NCBI GenBank assembly: GCA_951406725.2
Contig: OX597816.1
Coordinates: 50,902,001-50,966,000 of the forward strand
Length of the DNA stretch: 64,000 bases
Reading direction: 5' to 3'
Source: Octopus vulgaris
Lineage: Eukaryota
This document shows, piece after piece, positions 8,347 through 51,181 of the stretch; the stretch's first letter is position 1, and every line of letters begins with the position of its first letter. Both the position numbers and the translations under genes were made by a program. Under the pieces are notes generated by a model. That model made no database searches. It saw only the letters and a program-made list of their open reading frames with translations, and was not told the origin of the DNA.

Positions 8347-9722
8347 ACGTTTATAATGCAACTAAACTTTCTTCATTCAGCTTATTGTAAATATTATCAA
8401 TCCGGCTCGTCCACTCCTCATAGACTCCACTCTTTTTAACGGAAACGATTTTTACACAAACAATATTTTCGAAATATATTAAAGAAATATATAAACTATA
8501 TTGGAAAATTAAATTTCTAATTTGAGAAAATGTAAATTATTTCAAAGTCTTGAAGAGAAATCCCAAAATCAACGAGTAAGTGTGAATAATGTAGATTTGC
8601 CTCGAAGATTTAATGGAGGAGGCCAGTCACGGAAACAATAATGAAAATATGATTCATTCAGATTTTTATATAAAGGGTCTGATCACATTTACATTCTCGA
8701 AACATATTTTAAGTACGTTGTTCGTCACCTCATAGATCAGACACAATGTGTGACATACCATGATTTGATGGCAAATATTTTAAGTTTTGAATGCTTTCGT
8801 CTAAAATCTTCCGATAGTGTTTAGCATCTCCCTAGCTCATTTTTTGTCTGATATGAGAAATTAGAGGGTGGGCGACAGTAAAACTTTTGGAATAATGTCA
8901 GTCAACTGGCGTGAAAATATCAAAAGGCAATTTGTTAGAACCAGAAACATTTTTAATATTTTACATTCTTTAAGCTATGTTCAAATTGTTAAATTCCTTG
9001 ATATCAAATACAAATTGTGGTTCTTATAATCATTTCATTTTGAATACAATAATTACTTCACATAATAAATTTGACAATGGTACATATTTAATGTACAATT
9101 CCGTTAATTTCATTAAATTTTAATATATGTTCATATTTCTCCGAACACTTGATAGCTATTTTGTAATTTGTGATAACGAATTATACAATAATGAATGATT
9201 ATTTTATTTTCATAGTAAAAACATTAAAAAAGGGACATTGCATTTATTAATAATGATTTCTATGTCTGAAACATAGTTTTAGTGATCATCCTTAATTCTG
9301 ACAACCAGCGAATTTCTACTTGCCTGATTTTGTCAATATTAGTTTAGTAGTATTTCAGTATTAGATTCATCTCATATATATCTTTCACGGAATTTATTTC
9401 CGTCGATTGATATCAGTATAGTAACACTTCCGTAAATTGCTCAGTCATTTTTAAACACATTTTCTTATCCCAACAATGTTTTAAATCAGCCAAATTTGCA
9501 TTATTGTATCTGAAAATTAAACTAAGTACTTGTCATTTTCAATTAGTGTAACGAAAAATGAGAAAGTAAATGTTAATTGGAAAAATACATTTTGTTCTCA
9601 GCTTTGAGTTCTATTTGTGCCATAGCCATTTTTCCCCAACTGCACAAACCTTGGCGCAGTTTTCAGCATTGAAGTCCTCTCATCTCGATGCTTTAAGTTT
9701 GCTTAAATAAATTATTATTATT

Positions 9723-11960
<2,238 letters not shown>

Positions 11961-11966
11961 TTATTA

Positions 11967-12118
<152 letters not shown>

Positions 12119-12119
12119 T

Positions 12120-12530
12120 TCGACACGCCTTATGAAACATGCTCCCAAAGAACATGCTTCGCGGTTCAGTCTCACTGCATGTCACATTGAGCAAATGTTC
12201 TGTTCTATAGTCTCGGTCCTCCGAAAGCCTTATGAGTGAATTTGGTAGACATACGTTGAAAGAAGATCGTCTTATATATGTATATATCTATGTGGGTCCC
12301 TCTGTGTTTGTGCTTGACCTCCATCATCGCTTGATAACCTGTATTATTGTGTTTATCTTCCTGCAACATGGCGGTTCCGTAGAAGATAACAGATAGAATA
12401 AGTACCAGACTTATACAAAGAAAAAAAAGTAGCATGTACTTGGATCAATTTGTTCGACTCAAAGCTCATCAAGGCGGTGTCACAACATATCCGCGGTCAA
12501 ATGACTGCAACATGTAAAAAATAAAAGGTA
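12120..12530 (+). mobile_element. SINE family B (internal TA/TG tract), degenerate
   Basis: Body GCGGTTC...GATAGAATAAGTAC...AAGGCGGTG...GTCAAATGACTG is shared with 31010-31290, 41040-41258 and 63220-63548. Confidence 0.75.
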
Positions 12531-18381: not shown

Positions 18382-20458
18382 GATATTGGAAACATGTCAT
18401 ATCGATGTTTACAGAATGTGTGTCAGTGGTCCCTTTAGTGCTTGTTTGATATTATTGTTTGTCTCTGAAGATGCTATGATTGTCACGCAAGTGCTAGAGA
18501 GTAAAGGAATTACCCTACAGCAATGCTTTCCTCAAATTACTAACGATTAAAAGATAATTTGGCCTAAGAACCGGGAGAATATATCCAGTTGATCTGGTGA
18601 TATATTCTATTGATCACTGTAAAGGAAGACTAATTGTAATGTTTACATAACATCCTTATTAATGAATAATTCTTTCACTGCTTTCGACAGTCAGGAATGT
18701 AGAGCAAAAGCGAAAAGCGATCAGGTAAAGTGAAAAGCGACCAGGAAGATTAAAACTGAAACGTGTAGCAAAACGATAACTTTGTAGCATATACTTTTAG
18801 CTGTACGTACTAATCAAGCAGAATGTCTTGGGAAGCGACCATTTTCAGCATTCATTGATCAGAATGCATACATTGATGTTCCTCTACTTGTTCTAAAGCC
18901 AAATTAAGTGGAAATTTACCTCGTCTACACTACTCAAAAAGGTAAACGTTCACTTCATTTTCTTGCATAAATATATATTTCAAAAATCATATTTTAAAAT
19001 TGAAGATCTAATTAACTTACAGAGTTATTAACAATTCAAAAATTTTATTGTACTATCATTTGTGAAATAATTTACATAGTATGTCTTTACACATATCTTT
19101 TGCTTTCTAAATATCTTTAACAGGTGCTATGTTATGGCGATATATACCCAACTGATCATTATTGCTCGCTTGAACCTGCGTTTTTAATAATATTTAATAC
19201 AGTGAAATAAAACTCCACAACACATAGCACATCGTATTGCAAATTATTATTATCACGAAAAATAGCAGTCAGATGACTATTTTAAAATATATAACTAGTC
19301 AAATCATGAAAGCAATAAAATAATCTGTTAAAAGTTCGCCGATACAAGAAAATGAAAACTTGGAGTTCAAAACAAAATACGAATTTTGAATTGAATCAAT
19401 ACTTGATGAATAAACAGCTGCTTTACTTTAGCATGAAATGCTTAATGCTGTAGAAATTTCAATTAGGAAAGAAAACAAAAACAGGACCCTCATTGTAAAA
19501 GCGGAATAAATGATTGATGTGTCATTTGTTCTGATTTTTCCAGTAGATAATTGACGGTGATCTATATGAATTTACATTTATAAACTTGTGTGATATAATC
19601 TCATATCTATATCATTATATAACGATAATTAGGCATTATTTTATAATGGAAGGAGAAATATAATAGACTGAGTCTTACCTTACGAAAAATAACAAATCAA
19701 ATGTCTCTGTAAAGAAATTTTAATGTACATACAATTTTTATGTATAAAAAATAATCTATGTAGAATGTAAACGAGTGCACGTTAGACATCAAATTACATC
19801 CGAACTGTTTGCTGCAAGATAGCATCCGATTAAATAATAGAAAAAAATACCCTTAAATGCACACGTTAATGATCTATTCGTGAAACACAGTTTTACAGCA
19901 TGTACAACGGTTGGTAGGAAACATAAGACAAGCATTAACGAAAATGTATTGTTTAAATTATTTCTTTAAATCAAATTTCATATTTGCAAATGATGAAAGG
20001 CAACTGAAAAGAAAAGCATATGCTATATTTTTTCTGTAATGTAGTAGTTCATAATTAGAAATATTTTAAATATGAATACCCCTTAAAGAATACAAGCTAT
20101 ATAGTATATCAGAATCATCTCCATGAGATAATGAAAAACTGCAGGATATTCCAAGACCAACAGTTGCATCTACTTAGATTTTCTAGCTAAAACAAAGTAA
20201 GATAGAAATCGAGAGATTCATTACGCTAAAATATAAAATCAAATTACTACATAGAGATTCTTACTAAAAATCAAGAAAATTTTGAAGCTCTAGCAGGTAA
20301 TGCACTTCAAGATATGATGGTATCTATGGTTACGATAAAATTATAATGTTTTGAAATAGTAACAACAATAACATATTTGCGGAAAATATTAACGGTTTCA
20401 GATATGTAATATATGACAAAAATCGAAGTTTTCAGGACAATATCAATAATAATAATAA

Positions 20459-20523
<65 letters not shown>

Positions 20524-20549
20524 ACAATGATAGTAATTGATACAGTGCT

Positions 20550-21122
20550 TGATGCCCGGACGCAATACTTTGATGCCACGATGCAGTACCAGGTACTCGC
20601 TGTCATGGCTGCCAATCTTAATTGATTGAAAGTGATATCATGTACATTATTTTGTCTTTGTATCAAAGATGGGCCACAACAAATATTCGGCTCAATATCA
20701 CAGATTTGTTTGTCAGTTGTTTGACCATAACCAGTTGAGCATGTCTCTTTGTGGCTGGCAAAATGTGCATATCTGATCAGGAGTAGAAGTGGTGTGGGAT
20801 CATCATAACCGTTTGTTGAAAGGAATTCGTTAGATTTGGATAATTCACCTCTGGAAACATGGGTTTTCGTTCAACAACCTTCAACAACCCTTATTCAGGG
20901 TTTTGAGCGGGTTGGGCTACTCGACCAGAAGAAAATTGTAACAGGGTCCACCTGTAAGGACATGCGCTGTTTATTTTGATATGAGGTCACCAATTTGCGC
21001 ACACATTGTTGTGATGCATGCGCCTGATGTATCTTTATCAGGCGGGTAGTCATGGTGGGTAAACTGGGCTTTGTATATTTTACCCCAGTGTCACTTTCAT
21101 AGCATTCACAACTCTCTCACTC

Positions 21123-21198
<76 letters not shown>
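20550..21198 (+). mobile_element. Diverged copy of the ~555 bp element with (AAT)n tail
   Basis: Reverse complement of the 9723-11930 unit, ending CTCTCACTC followed by a long (AAT)n tract. Confidence 0.85.
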
Positions 21199-21201
<3 letters not shown>

Positions 21202-21697: not shown

Positions 21698-23230
21698 CAT
21701 TCGCAACAACATTAATAATAAGAACAATAATGGGCACAGTGACAATGACAACAAAAAATAGCGAAAATTATGATGATGAGAACGGCGATGATGATGATGA
21801 TAAAGATGATGATGAAAATGAAGCCTATGATGATGGTGATGATGATGATAATGATGATGACCAAAACGACGACATTACAGTTCATATTTGAAAGTGGAAT
21901 GAGGAAGAGAGCACAGGAAGAGGAAAATGAATTTGATGAGAATAGCCTTAATGAATAGCAAAATTTCCGGAAAAATTTGATGAAAAATTAATGTAAAGGA
22001 ACGAGAGGCCACGGTGTTAGTTGATTTGTAGACAGATTTTGCGAGGCTATAAAATTAACATAAAAATATGGACACTGTGTTATATCGGGAATATCTAAAC
22101 ACAAAATTACAACGGTAACTATAACCAAATGTTGACTTTAGTTAGTTTTCCTAGATTTAGGAAAACACCCTAGATCAGTTAATTATGTTTGTTTTCAAAA
22201 TGCTCCTGTCTCAGATTTACACACTTAGTTCAGATATCCTTCAGTTTTTTCTCAGCGCAGTAAAAGAACTCCTAAGCGTAGCAATGATTTAAGCCACTTG
22301 GACATTTGGTAGCAGTGCAAACTGTAAGCAAAAACAAGTTAAATTAGAAGAAATACATCACGTAAGAATAACAAGTATTTGGGAAACATATGAAGGATCT
22401 CAGAGTGAAAACAGAAAACCCGCTAAATTTTTTTAAAATATAAATAAAAAAATTTAGACCCAAACCTAGTATGTCTATGGTATAGAACTGCGTATCCGCT
22501 GTTCTTGAAGAAAATATCAGAACTTAGGATACCATGCTGAAGTTAGCGAATTATTCGGAGGAGAAATTTCAGAAAAATATCTCTGAAAAATAGTTGAATA
22601 TTAAGCCAGCTTCTAGTTTAAAATCCTCAAATGTGGGAGTATAAAAGTGAAAAATTTCATGATGGCGTCAATTATCATTGCGTTCTTGCATAAGAAAGAA
22701 CTTGAGCACAAAACTTTGAAAAGTTTTTTGAATTCAAAGTACGAACAGATACGAAAAGTATAAAGATATATAAAAATATACCGTAAAGAAATATATTCCA
22801 TACAGACTTCATAAAATGTCCATTTTCTCGAACAAATTGCACCTCGAGGAAAAATTCATAATTAAACAATGTTAAACAATAATAAAATGATGAACAGAAA
22901 AGCAATAATAAATGAAATTTTCTGCCTCACGCACACGAACAATTTTGAGGTGTGAGAATAGTTGATTAGATTGTCCTCAGACTAGTATTAATATTATATC
23001 ATATGGATAACACGGCAAACTTGCACAATCGTTAGTATGCCGTGTAAAATGCTTAGCAGTCTTTCGTCCGTCTTTATGTTCTGCCGAGATCGAATTTCCC
23101 TTTCATTATTTCAGGATCGAGAAAATAAGTCCCAGTTGAACACGGAGGTCGATTTAACTCTCTCCTCTGATATTGCTAGACTTGTGCCAAAATTTGAAAC
23201 TAATATTATATTATAGTTCTATATTTAAAT

Positions 23231-23543
23231 TATTTGCATTTGACGGATATTTATCCTCATCTTGTTTGTTGTTAACGCAGCGTTTCGGCTTATATACTCC
23301 GGGCAAATGGCGTAGTGGTTAAGAGCGAGGGCTACTAACCCCAACATTCCGAGTTCGATTCCAGGCAGTGACCAGAATAATAATAATAATAATGATAATA
23401 ATAATAATAACAACAACATCATCGAATAAGAACCATGGATCGAAATTTCCCTAAGACATCTGATGAAGGCTGGACAGTATACCAGCGGAAACGTTGTGTT
23501 GACAACAAAGAAGATGAGGACAAATATCCGTCAAATGTAAATA
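23231..23543 (+). mobile_element. tRNA-headed, hammerhead-tailed SINE-like element with 5' inverted copy of its 3' end
   Basis: A box TGGCGTAGTGG at 23308-23318, anticodon arm GGGG-CTACTAA-CCCC, B box GAGTTCGATTCC at 23351-23362, an (AAT)n spacer, and a hammerhead at 23455-23500. 23231-23300 is the reverse complement of ~23472-23543. Confidence 0.85.
23455..23500 (+). ncRNA. Type I hammerhead ribozyme
   Basis: gacat-CTGATGA-a-ggctgg[acagtata]ccagcg-GAAA-cg-TT-gtgtt, with palindromic stem III AACGTT and a GUU site. The inverted copy (AGCCGAAACG) suggests a consensus stem II of GGCTG/CAGCC. Confidence 0.75.
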
Positions 23544-23770
23544 TTATATTTTATTGATAGGGCGGTGAGTTGCAGAATCGGTAGCACGCCGAGCAAAATG
23601 GTTAGTGCTGTTTTGTCCATCCTAATGATTTGCGTACAGTTTTCGCTGAGGCCGACTTTGCCTTTTATCCTTTCGGGATCGATAAATAACACCACTTGAA
23701 CTCTGGATTTACTACCATGCCATTCCCACGTCGGTATTGCTTGTCTTTTGCCCAAATTTTAAAACAATAT

Positions 23771-35517: not shown

Positions 35518-36399
35518 CGTTGTGCTCGTGAAAATGTGTGTCCACATATGTTTTCATGAACTATTGATTTTTTTCATGGCGGATATGTCGCTTTTCGTCA
35601 GCTTGGTTGGACATGTTTTTCTTATGCTGTAGTACAAATTTAATCAATCGGACTTGTGTTTCTGCTTCATAATCTACACAAACAATATTGGATCTATTTC
35701 AGGACCAGCTATATTAGTATTTCATTGAAATAACCAGATTATTGATTCCCCAAGGGAATATTGTCTATTATCGACTGAGTAGGATTCGAAATCAGAAATT
35801 CCACATAAGTAACGATTAATTATAATATGTGACCTTTAAACTCCCAATAAAATAATAACCTATGAGTAAATATTTACATTTACTTCTTTAGTCATTCCTG
35901 CAGTGAATATTTACTACCGTTTTATATATTGTGTTCATGAATAGTGTATCTTTGTAGAATTTCTCTAGGTGTATTATATTTCAATAATCTTTTTCTTCAC
36001 ACTCGTGTACATTATGCGAAGAAATACTGGCTTTAATTAAGAGGTGCTATGTGTGAGAAACTCGCCAGATTTTTCTCCCTAATATAATTAAAATAATAAT
36101 GATAATTAGAATAATGTTAACGCACAGACAATAGACAATTTACTGCAGTATATGACTTAAGGTATCATCTAGGATGGATATGCTGTTTTAAAAAGAAATA
36201 AAAAGCATACGCATAAATCTCTTTCAACAGCGGGCAATGAGAGTACTGGATGAGTTTCGGTTTTGCAGGACTTATCAACTGGTTGTTCATTACAATAGAC
36301 AATAAGATGATCCTTGCTATTCATCTAGATGGTGCATAGATTATGGGTGTAAATGTCCATGTTATTTTTCATTATTTACATTATTTGCATTATTTACAT

Positions 36400-37140
36400 T
36401 GGACAAGTCTTATAAATGATGGTAGCTACAGCAAAGAAAAGAATGGCCCAACTCTGAAAACAGAGATCTTGATCAAGATCAGGGATCACTTTACACCAAT
36501 GAAGTACAAAAAAGTGACTCAACACTACAGTAAACTACCACACATGTACGGTCTCCCTAAAATTCACAAGAATGGTACTTCCGTTAAGACCTATGGTGAA
36601 CTGTAGAGGTTCAGCATGTCATGCATTGAGCCGCTTTCTTGTGGATATAATCAGTCCATTAGCAGGAAAGTCAACATCGTATGTAAAGAATTACACCCAC
36701 TCCACTGAATTGATCAATATACCCCCATTGAATCCAACCAGATGGTGAGACTAGATGTGATAGGCCTCTTCACCAAAGTCCCAACTAGTGAAAGACTACC
36801 AGTAATACAAGAAAAAAACTAGTGACAGACACCCATCTAAAAGAACGCACCAGTATACCAATAAAACTTCATGGAAATGTTGACTGTCTGTGTAGAAACT
36901 ACCTATTTCAGTATGGGCACTGATATATATATCGACAAAAAGAGGATTTAGCTATGGGTTCGCCATTATCACCAGTGATAGTCAATATATACATGGAATA
37001 CGTTGAGAATTTGGCGTTATGATCAACACCACTAAAGCCAACACTATGGCTACGATATGTTGATGGCACCTTTATACACTGGCCCCACAAGGAAGATGTC
37101 TAAGTGATTTTAGATCATGTGAACTCAATAAAGTTATCCA
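36400..37140 (+). mobile_element. Penelope-like element reverse transcriptase fragment (pseudogenised)
   Basis: Translated pieces read PHMYGLPKIHK, RPMVNCRGS, YVKN, LDVIGLFTKVP, YRQKEDLAMGSPLSPVIVNIYME and LWLRYVDGTF, which are diagnostic PLE RT motifs. Stops and frameshifts are present. Confidence 0.92.
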
Positions 37141-39379
37141 AACAGTTGTTGGGAGGGTTAATACATATAAGAAACAGTTAACAATAGATATAGTGTGTTT
37201 GACGTTTTAAAAGGGCAGAAAAGGGATAGGACCAAACATGAAAATGCTAGTGTAGCATATCTTAGTAAAATTATCTGGGTATAGGAAGGAGAATAAGCTA
37301 GAGAATTCTCGTGATGGATTCCAAGCTCAATATTATTTCGTTCAATTGTGTATAGGTGAATATAGTCGTTCTCAGGAGGAGTTTTTTCAGGAAGGGTGAA
37401 TTTAGGCAGTAGTTCGCATTATATTTACATAGAAATACAGTGGTGGATTTGAAGGTATGGTCCGTGTTCTGGGGTTGAAAGTTTATATGTAAAGTGCCGG
37501 TTAGTAGGTGCAACGTTGCAGATCGTATGGCATAACCAACCTATGATGGTGAAACCATCATGGGAAAATTTGGCATATCAGTTACCTAATGAGAGTAAGG
37601 TTGGACCAAAGCGCGGTCTTAGTGCTCGTTTCTTGTTTGTTGAACAGAATTTTGTCTGTGTCTGGCCATGTGATTTTTGAAAACTTGTGTTGGTGTGTTT
37701 GTATCCTCCAACTAGCAGTTCGGTGAAGGGATACGATAGAAAAAGTACTGGGGGCAATTCATTGGACTGCAATTTGAAGGGGGTGCTCCATCATGGCCCC
37801 ATTTTAATGACAAGAACAAGTAAAATATAAAAAGTGATATATATGCATATATATATTGATCAATGCAATCATTATATCAATTTAAATGCAGGGCTATCAT
37901 CAGCTGCGCAAATAAGTTGATAGAATTTTAATCAATCTGACATATTAATATAATTTTACTCAAATACCTTAACAGAGCACGAAGATGAAAGAAATCCATG
38001 TAAACGCTATTGTAGCTAAAAATATATTACACTTTCAAGAAATGCATTAAGCTTACTGGGGTCATAGCTCGTAAAGGATCGTGATTCATTTTTATTAATC
38101 TATTTTATCAACTACTAAATCTAAGCCTAGAGGACTGTCTCTGTTTAGAATGAAGGGAGAGAGCAAGTTTATAGCTAGGTATGGTAATAAATATTGTCAA
38201 GATTTTAGTAGTAAATTGCGTGTAGCATATCTGTCAATAAAGGTGGCTGGGTAAAGGGGACCCTAAATCATGGTGTTAATTACCGGTTAAAGGGGCAAGA
38301 TACTTATAAAACCTGTGATGTTAATAGAGAGGAGATTTTATCATGGGGTACTTTAGGTGATTGTTTATAAACAAAATTGATAGGTTGTATTCAGGTAAAA
38401 TTCAAGATGATAAAAAATGATACATTAACCAAAATAGATAAAATGTGTATATATATATATCAATTTTCAACACTAAAAGGGAAAGATTACATAGAATCAG
38501 TTTAATATTCATTGATGTACTTAATTATTTACTTATTAGGCGGTTTCTATAAAGATTGCTCTGGGCATTACTTATGGAATACTGGACAGATAAATATACT
38601 ATCGATGTAGTAATTATAAGCCAAGAATCAGAAAAAATAATGTTGTGAACAGATACACACACATTTTTAACTATGTGCACGTATGCACACATACACAAAT
38701 ATTTATACGTTTTTATGGATATAGGATAATCATGTCGCATAGACTTAATTAACTAGAAAGTGTCTATCTCTATCTTAGAACAGTAACAACTTATAGGGAG
38801 AAGAGCTTAATAGGTGAGTATATCAAATTAAGAAAACAAAATAAGATTTTATAGAAAATTATAAGAAATATATATAATTACATTTAAAGAGACTGGATAT
38901 TAAAACTTGAGGTACGAAAGAGATAAAGATAACTCCAAAAGAAGAAGCAATAGGTACGGGATTTGTGAGTGCAGTTGCAGGTATTCAAACAGTAGAGATT
39001 TTATATGTTGCAATGTTAGAGGTTCTATTACATTTATGATTTTATAGTTTCTAGGGGGACTTACATAAGAGCCATTACAAATATACATAATATGATCAGT
39101 AGGTTAGAGCACCTTCGAAAGGAACAAATACATGATGAAGTCAGATTAACTAGGCAGGATTTTGCATCGGATACTAATTACATGTAGCACACCACATATC
39201 ATAACATATGACCTATAACATATGCAATGCAATTTAAAATCACCATATAACTCAAAATCCAATGATTTTATTATATATAATCCTAGAGGGTAATTTCACA
39301 ACAGATACGACACCAAAATTAATTTCCATCATTAAAGTTCAAGTATACCACCTATAATTGCTAATTATGAAAATGCCTA

Positions 39380-50631: not shown

Positions 50632-50940
50632 TGCATATATACATATATATATGCGTGTGTATGTATGTACATACACATATATGTGACAGTGGATGTGTAT
50701 TCGCATATATAGGTAAATGATTAAAATATATAGAGAATTATCTACAAATTAATATGAGTGTGTATGTGTGTGTGTAAGTGTGAGTGTTTTTAAAGGGATA
50801 TTTTTTGTTCCACCGGAACAATACGAGAAGGTAAAAATTAAACTGGAAAAGGAAAACCAAACAAAACATAGAACCGGTATTAAGGAAGGCTAAGAAAATA
50901 TTAGATTTCTAAGCCCTAAAATTCACTCCATAATTGCCCA

Positions 50941-51181
50941 CGGGCATATGCCGTAGTGGATAAGAGCGCGGGCTATTAACTCCAAGATTCCCATTGCGAT
51001 ACCAGGCAGTGACATGAATAATAATAATAATAATGGTGATAATAACATCGAAAAATACCTTGTGAATGAGAACCCAGGTTCGAAATTTCCCCAAGGGATA
51101 TGGTGAATGCTGGAGTGTATATCGGCCAAAATGCTGTGTTAACAACAAAGGTGAGGACAAATATCCGTCAAGTGTAAATAA
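50941..51181 (+). mobile_element. Second, older copy of the tRNA-head/(AAT)n/hammerhead element
   Basis: Colinear with 23300-23543: CGTAGTGG.TAAGAGCG, CCAGGCAGTGAC, (AAT)n, TCGAAATTTCCC, GTGTT.ACAACAAAG, TGAGGACAAATATCCGTCAA. The hammerhead core is mutated (ATGGTGA...AAAA). Confidence 0.85.

Follow-up and report, generated by a model that had tools for sequence, protein, structure and literature searches.

Penelope-type pseudo-LTR with a tRNA-like head

The window analysed here is a stretch of 64,000 nucleotides (nt) of Octopus vulgaris DNA (GenBank assembly GCA_951406725.2, contig OX597816.1, positions 50,902,001 to 50,966,000). At 23231..23543 it carries a short repeat composed of a tRNA-like head, an (AAT)n spacer, a hammerhead ribozyme and a short tail, with part of the repeat inverted ahead of the head. 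To judge from its sequence, this locus is a decayed copy of the pseudo-long terminal repeat (pLTR) of a Penelope-type retrotransposon. The anatomy of the unit is almost certainly real, and its many copies in the octopus genome were very likely mobilized by this Penelope element. The reading favored here, held with moderate confidence, is that the pLTR is copied by the element's own reverse transcriptase (RT)/GIY-YIG protein from RNA that RNA polymerase III (Pol III) initiates at the tRNA-like head.

The stretch upstream of the head that is common to two copies translates to the end of a Penelope-type endonuclease, and 29 of 30 loci picked by this upstream stretch continue into the head. For a pick independent of the head, a sea-urchin endonuclease peptide was used, which has 150 matches in the genome. 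The 30 loci fetched all belong to the same family, with no other Penelope family of the host genome (G000) among them; the head stands right behind the stop codon in 23 and the hammerhead body is present in 25. The head follows the stop of the open reading frame (ORF) at a constant offset of about 40 nt. Head and hammerhead, which a first-pass annotation of the sequence had joined into one unit, are indeed linked: this holds for 25 of the 30 loci chosen with a head 17-mer and for 24 of the 29 chosen by head similarity.

The near full-length copy L062 encodes an N-terminal region, an RT (RVT_1; E-value: 1e-9) and then a C-terminal endonuclease. The endonuclease is similar to the C-terminal part of P0086, which carries PF01541 (BLAST E-value: 2e-7), and the Atlas GIY-YIG clusters gave 0.95-0.96; the Pfam GIY-YIG profile had no match to the 109-aa endonuclease piece. 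A single ORF with an RT followed at the C-terminus by a GIY-YIG endonuclease is the organization of a Penelope-like element (PLE) of the endonuclease-bearing (EN+) type. An extra zinc finger in the linker joining RT to endonuclease, a trait of Neptune and Nematis, was not seen in L062 by eye. The closest protein relatives are 52-66% identical, one cluster being from a barnacle. Alignment scans for relatives gave 30-49% identity only, and a single-protein metagenome scan and a viral scan for the closest protein relatives returned nothing. The RT tree was built without named PLE reference sequences. Penelope-type ORFs were also seen in contigs filed as bacterial metagenome-assembled genomes (L310-L314), which are probably eukaryotic contamination.

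What looks like the tail of the unit is the beginning of the ORF. In single copies (L173 and L174) the frame runs through the hammerhead into the ORF, and in L184 an ATG lies about 35 nt upstream of the catalytic core; a frame through the hammerhead is common to P0008, P0124 and L232. From the translations of L173, L174 and L184 and their mapping, the ATG of the family corresponds to window positions 23426-23428, which read ATA in the window copy. Four loci picked by the ORF start (L175, L181, L185 and L191) are partial tandems with the order ORF end, head, spacer, hammerhead and ORF start, as in a pLTR, and L184 and L199 begin at +1/+4 (numbered from the first base of the tRNA-like head) and run into the ORF. 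Because the unit is linked to the ORF end and stands in tandems before the next ORF, it is read as the pLTR of the element. In Drosophila Penelope the pLTR is established as the promoter of the downstream copy (PMC2377424). A PLE whose terminal repeat shares the 3' part of the unit, as foreseen by the first-pass annotation, was therefore found, since the autonomous element itself carries head, (AAT)n and hammerhead; the 3' part is of Penelope type and is not the tail of a long interspersed element (LINE). A recurrent 3' end at ORF nt 395 was considered as a possible terminator; it arises artefactually from a 39-nt deletion carried by the reference copy L062.

Organization of the locus

The features of the locus and of the two further pieces of the family in the window are as follows.

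23210..23229 (-): inverted piece of the extreme 3' tail of the family (about +265 to +285); 17 of 20 bases are the reverse complement of the tail end, by eye
23231..23298 (-): the unit's 3' part again, inverted and 5'-truncated as in Penelope insertions; 68 nt, 87% identical to 23476-23543
23301..23373 (+): tRNA-derived head, first part of the pLTR; host-tRNA profile E-value 0.0019, best pairwise match tRNA-Arg(TCG)
23308-23318, 23329-23342 and 23353-23361 (+): A box, anticodon-like arm and B box of the head; the variable loop is 5 nt
23376..23421 (+): (AAT)n/(AAC)n spacer, of variable length from copy to copy (from the sequence, with lengths compared among copies)
23424..23543 (+): start of the Penelope ORF as it stands in the terminal repeat; the frame passes through the hammerhead and is 44-46% identical to the P0008 N-terminus
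23455..23500 (+): minimal type I hammerhead (pattern match and family alignment)
23455-23459/23496-23500, 23460-23466 and 23468-23473/23482-23487 (+): stem I, core CTGATGA and stem II of the hammerhead
23488-23491 and 23495/23496 (+): GAAA and predicted cut of the hammerhead, which also has a CG loop
36371..37145 (+): third piece, consisting of a short inverted tail piece (36371-36396) before an RT-region fragment of about 760 nt (36399-37145; 85% identity to L062)
50871..51181 (+): second copy, with the last 38 nt or so of the ORF, the 3' untranslated region (UTR), head (from 50941), spacer and a core-decayed hammerhead

The head with its A and B boxes, the (AAT)n, the hammerhead and the tail all lie where the first-pass annotation had placed them. 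The inversion of the last 70 nt or so ahead of the head is likewise present, and the arm extends further, to about 23210, the tail piece being set apart from the remainder by a short deletion. A colinear second copy had been reported at 50941-51181. It is there, but extends back to 50871, a position within the last part of the Penelope ORF.

Hammerhead ribozyme

The 2.8-Gb genome contains 3,165 exact matches to a hammerhead pattern with 25 fixed bases and none to the reversed control, so the motif is commoner than by chance. The assignment to type I stands. The supposed palindromic stem III, AACGTT, does not: it is just a 2-nt CG loop between A15.1 and U16.1, giving a self-complementary ACGU. 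The family has the core, the NUH site, the stems, the G10.1-C11.1 pair and the palindromic loop 3 of a minimal type I hammerhead. Of 89 copies, 42 have an intact core, GAAA, loop and G10.1-C11.1, and in most copies both stem I and stem II pair. In the window copy the G10.1-C11.1 pair is broken (G23468/G23487), and the ribozyme of this copy is probably impaired; the Rfam hammerhead models have no match to it.

Conservation of the core above background, which the first-pass annotation had made a test of its reading, was found at ten non-CpG core positions in 45 copies not chosen on the hammerhead (9 changes in 422, or 2.1%, versus 4.7% in composition-matched columns; P about 0.002). This suggests that source copies needed an intact core, with overlap of the coding frame as a confounding factor. 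Minimal hammerheads of PLEs cut weakly and as dimers, and their layout matches the one found here (PMC4209133).

tRNA-like head

A tRNA profile built from 37 tRNA genes, 35 of them from the host genome, matches the head of the window copy (E-value: 0.0019) and of copy L066 (E-value: 1.6e-6); the antisense strand has no match. Among the 35 sampled host tRNAs, the window copy is most similar to tRNA-Arg(TCG) (z = 8.3) and L066 to Cys/Arg tRNAs. ARAGORN predicts no tRNA gene at the head at thresholds from 95 to 75, and its match at 70 is near the shuffle level. Rfam, run over the window and over 23200-23600, returned neither tRNA nor hammerhead, only microsatellite noise. The anticodon-like arm had been given as GGGG-CTACTAA-CCCC and likened to tRNA-Ser(GCU). 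It actually reads AGGG-CTACTAA-CCCC, with three G. An origin from tRNA-Ser(GCU) is unlikely because the variable loop is only 5 nt; no Ser(GCT) gene is among the 35 tRNAs sampled. By these comparisons the head would resemble tRNA-Arg and not tRNA-Ser. A tRNA-related head, A and B boxes and a fixed 5' end are the features of a short interspersed element (SINE). Bases -16..-2 are an imperfect inverted copy of +1..+14, giving a hairpin that spans +1 (L066; window 50925-50954). This 15-base inverted copy is perhaps the scar of a fold-back that joined the head to the element.

The same profile was applied to 38 3' flanks of related elements, of which 37 have no tRNA-like segment and one, L232, has a weak match (E-value: 0.034). 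L232 (2820-3030) belongs to a distant Penelope-type element with 37% RT identity, present in its contig as two identical 2.8-kb units. Behind its ORF the order of parts is the same, with A/B-like motifs followed by an AAT run, then an ATG and then a hammerhead; there are two runs of four T (T4) and no run of five in 2.7 kb. L232 may be a second tRNA-headed case; about 0.4 chance matches are expected from the motif scan, and its placement beside this clade is weakly supported (86/69).

Copy number and structure of insertions

Exact 17-mers were counted at four positions, giving 14,145 at +207, 6,502 at +32, 1,243 at -36 and 1,008 at -168 (controls 0-1). The count falls 5.2-fold over 68 nt across +1, compared with a 1.2-fold fall along 132 nt of the ORF; mutability may not be quite equal among the four words. 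In 30 loci, taken as the first matches of a head word on contig C1 (a few of them overlapping or duplicated), the 5' end lies at -6..+8 in 22, at -16..-25 in four, at +16..+23 in three and in the ORF in one. Most copies, like a SINE, have their 5' end at the head. Many copies begin at exactly the first G of the head and many others carry 2-6 upstream bases. Five insertions in 70 evenly spaced 10-kb stretches correspond to about 20,000 genome-wide (95% range 6,500-47,000).

The insertions have the hallmarks of Penelope, as had been proposed. Among 47 insertions (two position-ordered samples merged), 30 carry a divergent inverted piece and four carry ORF sequence. The 3' ends lie at +240..+258 or +283, about 40 nt apart, matching the 30-40-nt tail described for PLEs (PMC8557442). 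An inverted, 5'-truncated piece and such a tail are both characteristic of Penelope insertions. DNA runs of organisms A, B, C and D show these ends again, together with a fold-back junction at -6. LINE-type insertions would end in a simple repeat or poly(A) and have a target-site duplication; here the 3' ends are unique sequence, inversions occur, and the sole candidate for a duplication, looked for in the window copy, is an AT-rich 8-mer that overlaps its ends. The body is directly repeated, as in the tandems of retrozymes, in a few loci only (for example L017, L020, L092 and L136). A few heads end in the microsatellite without a body (L089, L326, L327 and L330). In L089, L327 and L328, head and (AAT)n join an A-rich LINE-like sequence and not the hammerhead body, through either a later insertion into the microsatellite or a chimera.

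Short copies and ORF-linked copies have the same majority base at every compared column (66 short versus 19 ORF-linked; in a replicate, 33 versus 30), such that no diagnostic column separates them. For this reason the short copies are read as derived from the repeat of the element itself, with possible re-amplification out of solo copies. At non-CpG positions, short copies diverge from the majority by 4.0% and ORF-linked ones by 5.8%, with a selection bias towards young short copies.

Transcription

The evidence for Pol III consists of A and B boxes at tRNA spacing, the sharp step in 5' ends and the lack of T4 runs in the sense strand of the ORF. From these features, RNA would probably start at the head by Pol III, though by no means with certainty. 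The majority sequence of the 2.3-kb ORF has no T4 run in sense, where shuffles expect 3.9 and 2.9 (P 0.007 and 0.023), and 28 in antisense. Single copies have 0-2 T4 runs, at places that are not shared. Related ORFs of other organisms have a mean of 2.4 T4 per kb at similar T content, with three of 65 free of T4 and none of the 20 intact ones, so that the lack of T4 is significant relative to these elements as it is relative to the shuffles. Separately, an RNA-only loose end at L066:1586-1616 has 209-255 reads per run in RNA runs X21-X23 and differs from the family mainly by T to C on the plus strand (A to G on the element strand). These changes may fit A-to-I hyper-editing of double-stranded RNA from the inverted repeat.

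Proposed model and alternatives

The favored model for the spread of the unit has the following steps. Pol III would start RNA at any intact head, with either a solo repeat or a full element's 5' repeat as the source of the template RNA. The RT would prime at either 3' site (+240 to +258, or +283) and run off the 5' end of the RNA, leaving a SINE-like copy of 240-285 nt, and a second truncated strand or a fold-back would produce the inverted arm. The hammerhead would cut only as a dimer formed via the ACGU palindrome; monomer RNAs would thus stay whole and copies would extend beyond the cut site. In tandem transcripts, the cut would leave the start codon apart from the ORF; re-ligating the RNA into a circle would bring the two together again and yield partial tandems. 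The 20,000 or so short copies likely arose because the RNA starts at the tRNA-like head, so that the element would make its own SINE. A stronger form of the model is doubtful. In it, Pol III would transcribe the whole 2.6-kb coding element from the tRNA-derived promoter in its terminal repeat, no cap would be needed owing to the hammerhead, T4 would have been purged from the ORF, the start codon would rejoin the ORF in circular RNA alone, and the repeat would serve also as a self-made SINE.

Several observations weigh against the favored model. The A and B boxes are not better conserved than the rest of the head (41 changes in 748 versus 153 in 2,617). Compensatory, double-sided changes in the hammerhead stems, which the first-pass annotation had proposed to look for as covariation, were not found among the family copies. 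The active dimer fold was computed to lie 7 kcal/mol higher than the minimum for the dimer, and folding energy therefore gives efficient cleavage no support. Six Pfam-confirmed LINE frames of the host have 13 T4 runs versus 24.9 expected, which raises the probability of finding none in the ORF to about 0.22; because host LINEs are also poor in T runs, the absence of T4 from the ORF is not significant against frames of the same genome. RNA runs cover the unit and are unstranded and fragmented, without a start or end peak, which is uninformative on self-cleavage. Four of seven N-terminal loci with a head continue upstream past +1, so not all templates start there. The fold-back junction at the apex in the +1 region is the commonest single loose end in the head region among reads; with the hairpin, this pile-up means that part of the 5' peak can come from fold-back of the RT. 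Finally, spacers are longer in short than in ORF-linked copies in the first sample (41.5 versus 15 nt, p = 7e-5). The replicate is not significant (27 versus 20.5 nt, p = 0.12), and a longer spacer was rejected as a mark of short copies.

The alternative that survives best, although it is unlikely, is that the head is a passenger: an old tRNA and (AAT)n piece of a SINE lying in the 3' UTR of an element transcribed by Pol II, with the RT dropping off or folding back at the +1 hairpin. The hairpin and its fold-back junctions, the unexceptional conservation of the boxes, the single majority sequence of short and long copies and the heads that end in a microsatellite without a body all agree with this. 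However, a structural stall predicts ends 3' of the hairpin, at +14 or later, where only the three ends at +16..+23 lie, against the 22 of 30 at -6..+8. Most of the latter join unrelated flank or an inverted piece of the body and are not folded back. Moreover, the 5' peak coincides with the family that has a promoter-like head, 37 of the 38 related elements being without a tRNA-like segment (5' ends were mapped in this family only).

It is considerably less probable that a separate lineage of tRNA SINEs captured the pLTR and was mobilized in trans, with the ORF-linked heads as secondary chimeras. The dominance of short copies, their somewhat younger appearance, very long spacers among them and a core conservation that implies several source copies would suit such a lineage. 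The first-pass annotation had likewise proposed a non-autonomous element that captured a pLTR. Against this proposal stand the autonomous element carrying the whole unit, with the head behind the ORF at a constant offset in 23 of 30 ORF-bearing copies, and the lack of any diagnostic column between the classes.

Least probable of all is that the tRNA-like segment is a processing signal at which RNase P cuts long Penelope RNAs at +1 to free a short template: many copies begin at exactly the first G of the head as this requires, but no cloverleaf is recognized even at relaxed thresholds and many copies carry 2-6 bases from beyond an RNase P site.

Comparison to known elements

The element resembles Penelope/Poseidon PLEs with hammerheads in their pLTRs (PMC4209133, PMC8557442) in its single ORF for RT and C-terminal GIY-YIG, its partial-tandem pLTRs, the inverted 5'-truncated piece and the 30-40-nt tail at one end. 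Its minimal type I hammerhead is also of their kind: stem II is preceded by an extra base and loop 3 is palindromic. Unlike in those elements, the pLTR has a tRNA-derived head with A and B boxes at which 5' ends pile up instead of spreading, the start codon precedes the cut site, and a 5' intron is not seen (the frame is continuous in single copies).

Similarity also exists to the Sm-alpha and Sj-alpha repeats of Schistosoma (PMC6765202; PMC8490949 for Sm-alpha), short dispersed repeats in which a Pol III-type promoter is followed by a type I hammerhead. Sm-alpha is described as often in tandem, and no autonomous partner is named for it in the available passages of PMC6765202, whereas the octopus copies are mostly monomers with inverted arms and their unit serves an identified autonomous element as its terminal repeat. 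Non-LTR retrozymes (PMC7229834; bioRxiv 10.64898/2026.07.22.740005) are likewise short non-coding units that have a hammerhead and derive from PLE pLTRs, and use of PLE proteins is proposed for them. They form head-to-tail tandem arrays, whereas tandems of the short unit are rare here. The words tRNA, Pol III, octopus and cephalopod do not appear in the available part of the bioRxiv preprint. Cassandra, Helenus and Ajax (PMC10886601) also carry a Pol III-type sequence derived from a small RNA in their terminal repeat. Those are non-autonomous LTR elements, whereas the repeat described here belongs to a protein-coding Penelope-type element and contains a ribozyme.

A Penelope element with a tRNA-derived head was not found in the literature searched, which included, in the parts available, the repeat annotation of Octopus vulgaris and SINE papers and left Repbase, Dfam, SINEBase and subscription papers outside. 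The element may already be present in the supplementary family lists of PMC13282606, PMC8557442 or PMC4209133.

Short non-autonomous Penelope elements have been reported in butterflies. In octopus, tRNA-derived SINEs named OK, OR1 and OR2 were reportedly described by Ohshima and Okada in 1994, with OR1 and OR2 said to be of Arg origin. The short unit may be one of these SINEs, or may be filed as a SINE in Repbase or Dfam.

Other repeats in the window

A different repeat at 23560-23700, with an A-box-like start by eye, begins 17 nt past 23543. Several direct and inverted copies of another repeat with long (ATT)n tracts lie at 9700-12240 and 20300-21200. At 1279-1906 there is an inverted repeat resembling a miniature inverted-repeat transposable element, with 206-nt arms of 97% identity.

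Implications for Penelope elements and SINEs

With the octopus unit, a SINE-like family can be assigned concretely to its Penelope-type partner. Pol III transcription of the full element, if it takes place, would make this a type of coding retrotransposon that the literature searched does not contain. For annotation, some 20,000 insertions that pipelines are likely to split between 'SINE' and 'Penelope' are one element. The favored model represents a different route to a SINE, in which a tRNA-type promoter would lie inside the terminal repeat of an autonomous element, in place of a tRNA gene copy that captures the tail of a partner. Tens of thousands of natural copies make several questions about Penelope testable, including where the RNA starts, whether the hammerhead is needed for spread, and how the inversion and the 40-nt tail originate.
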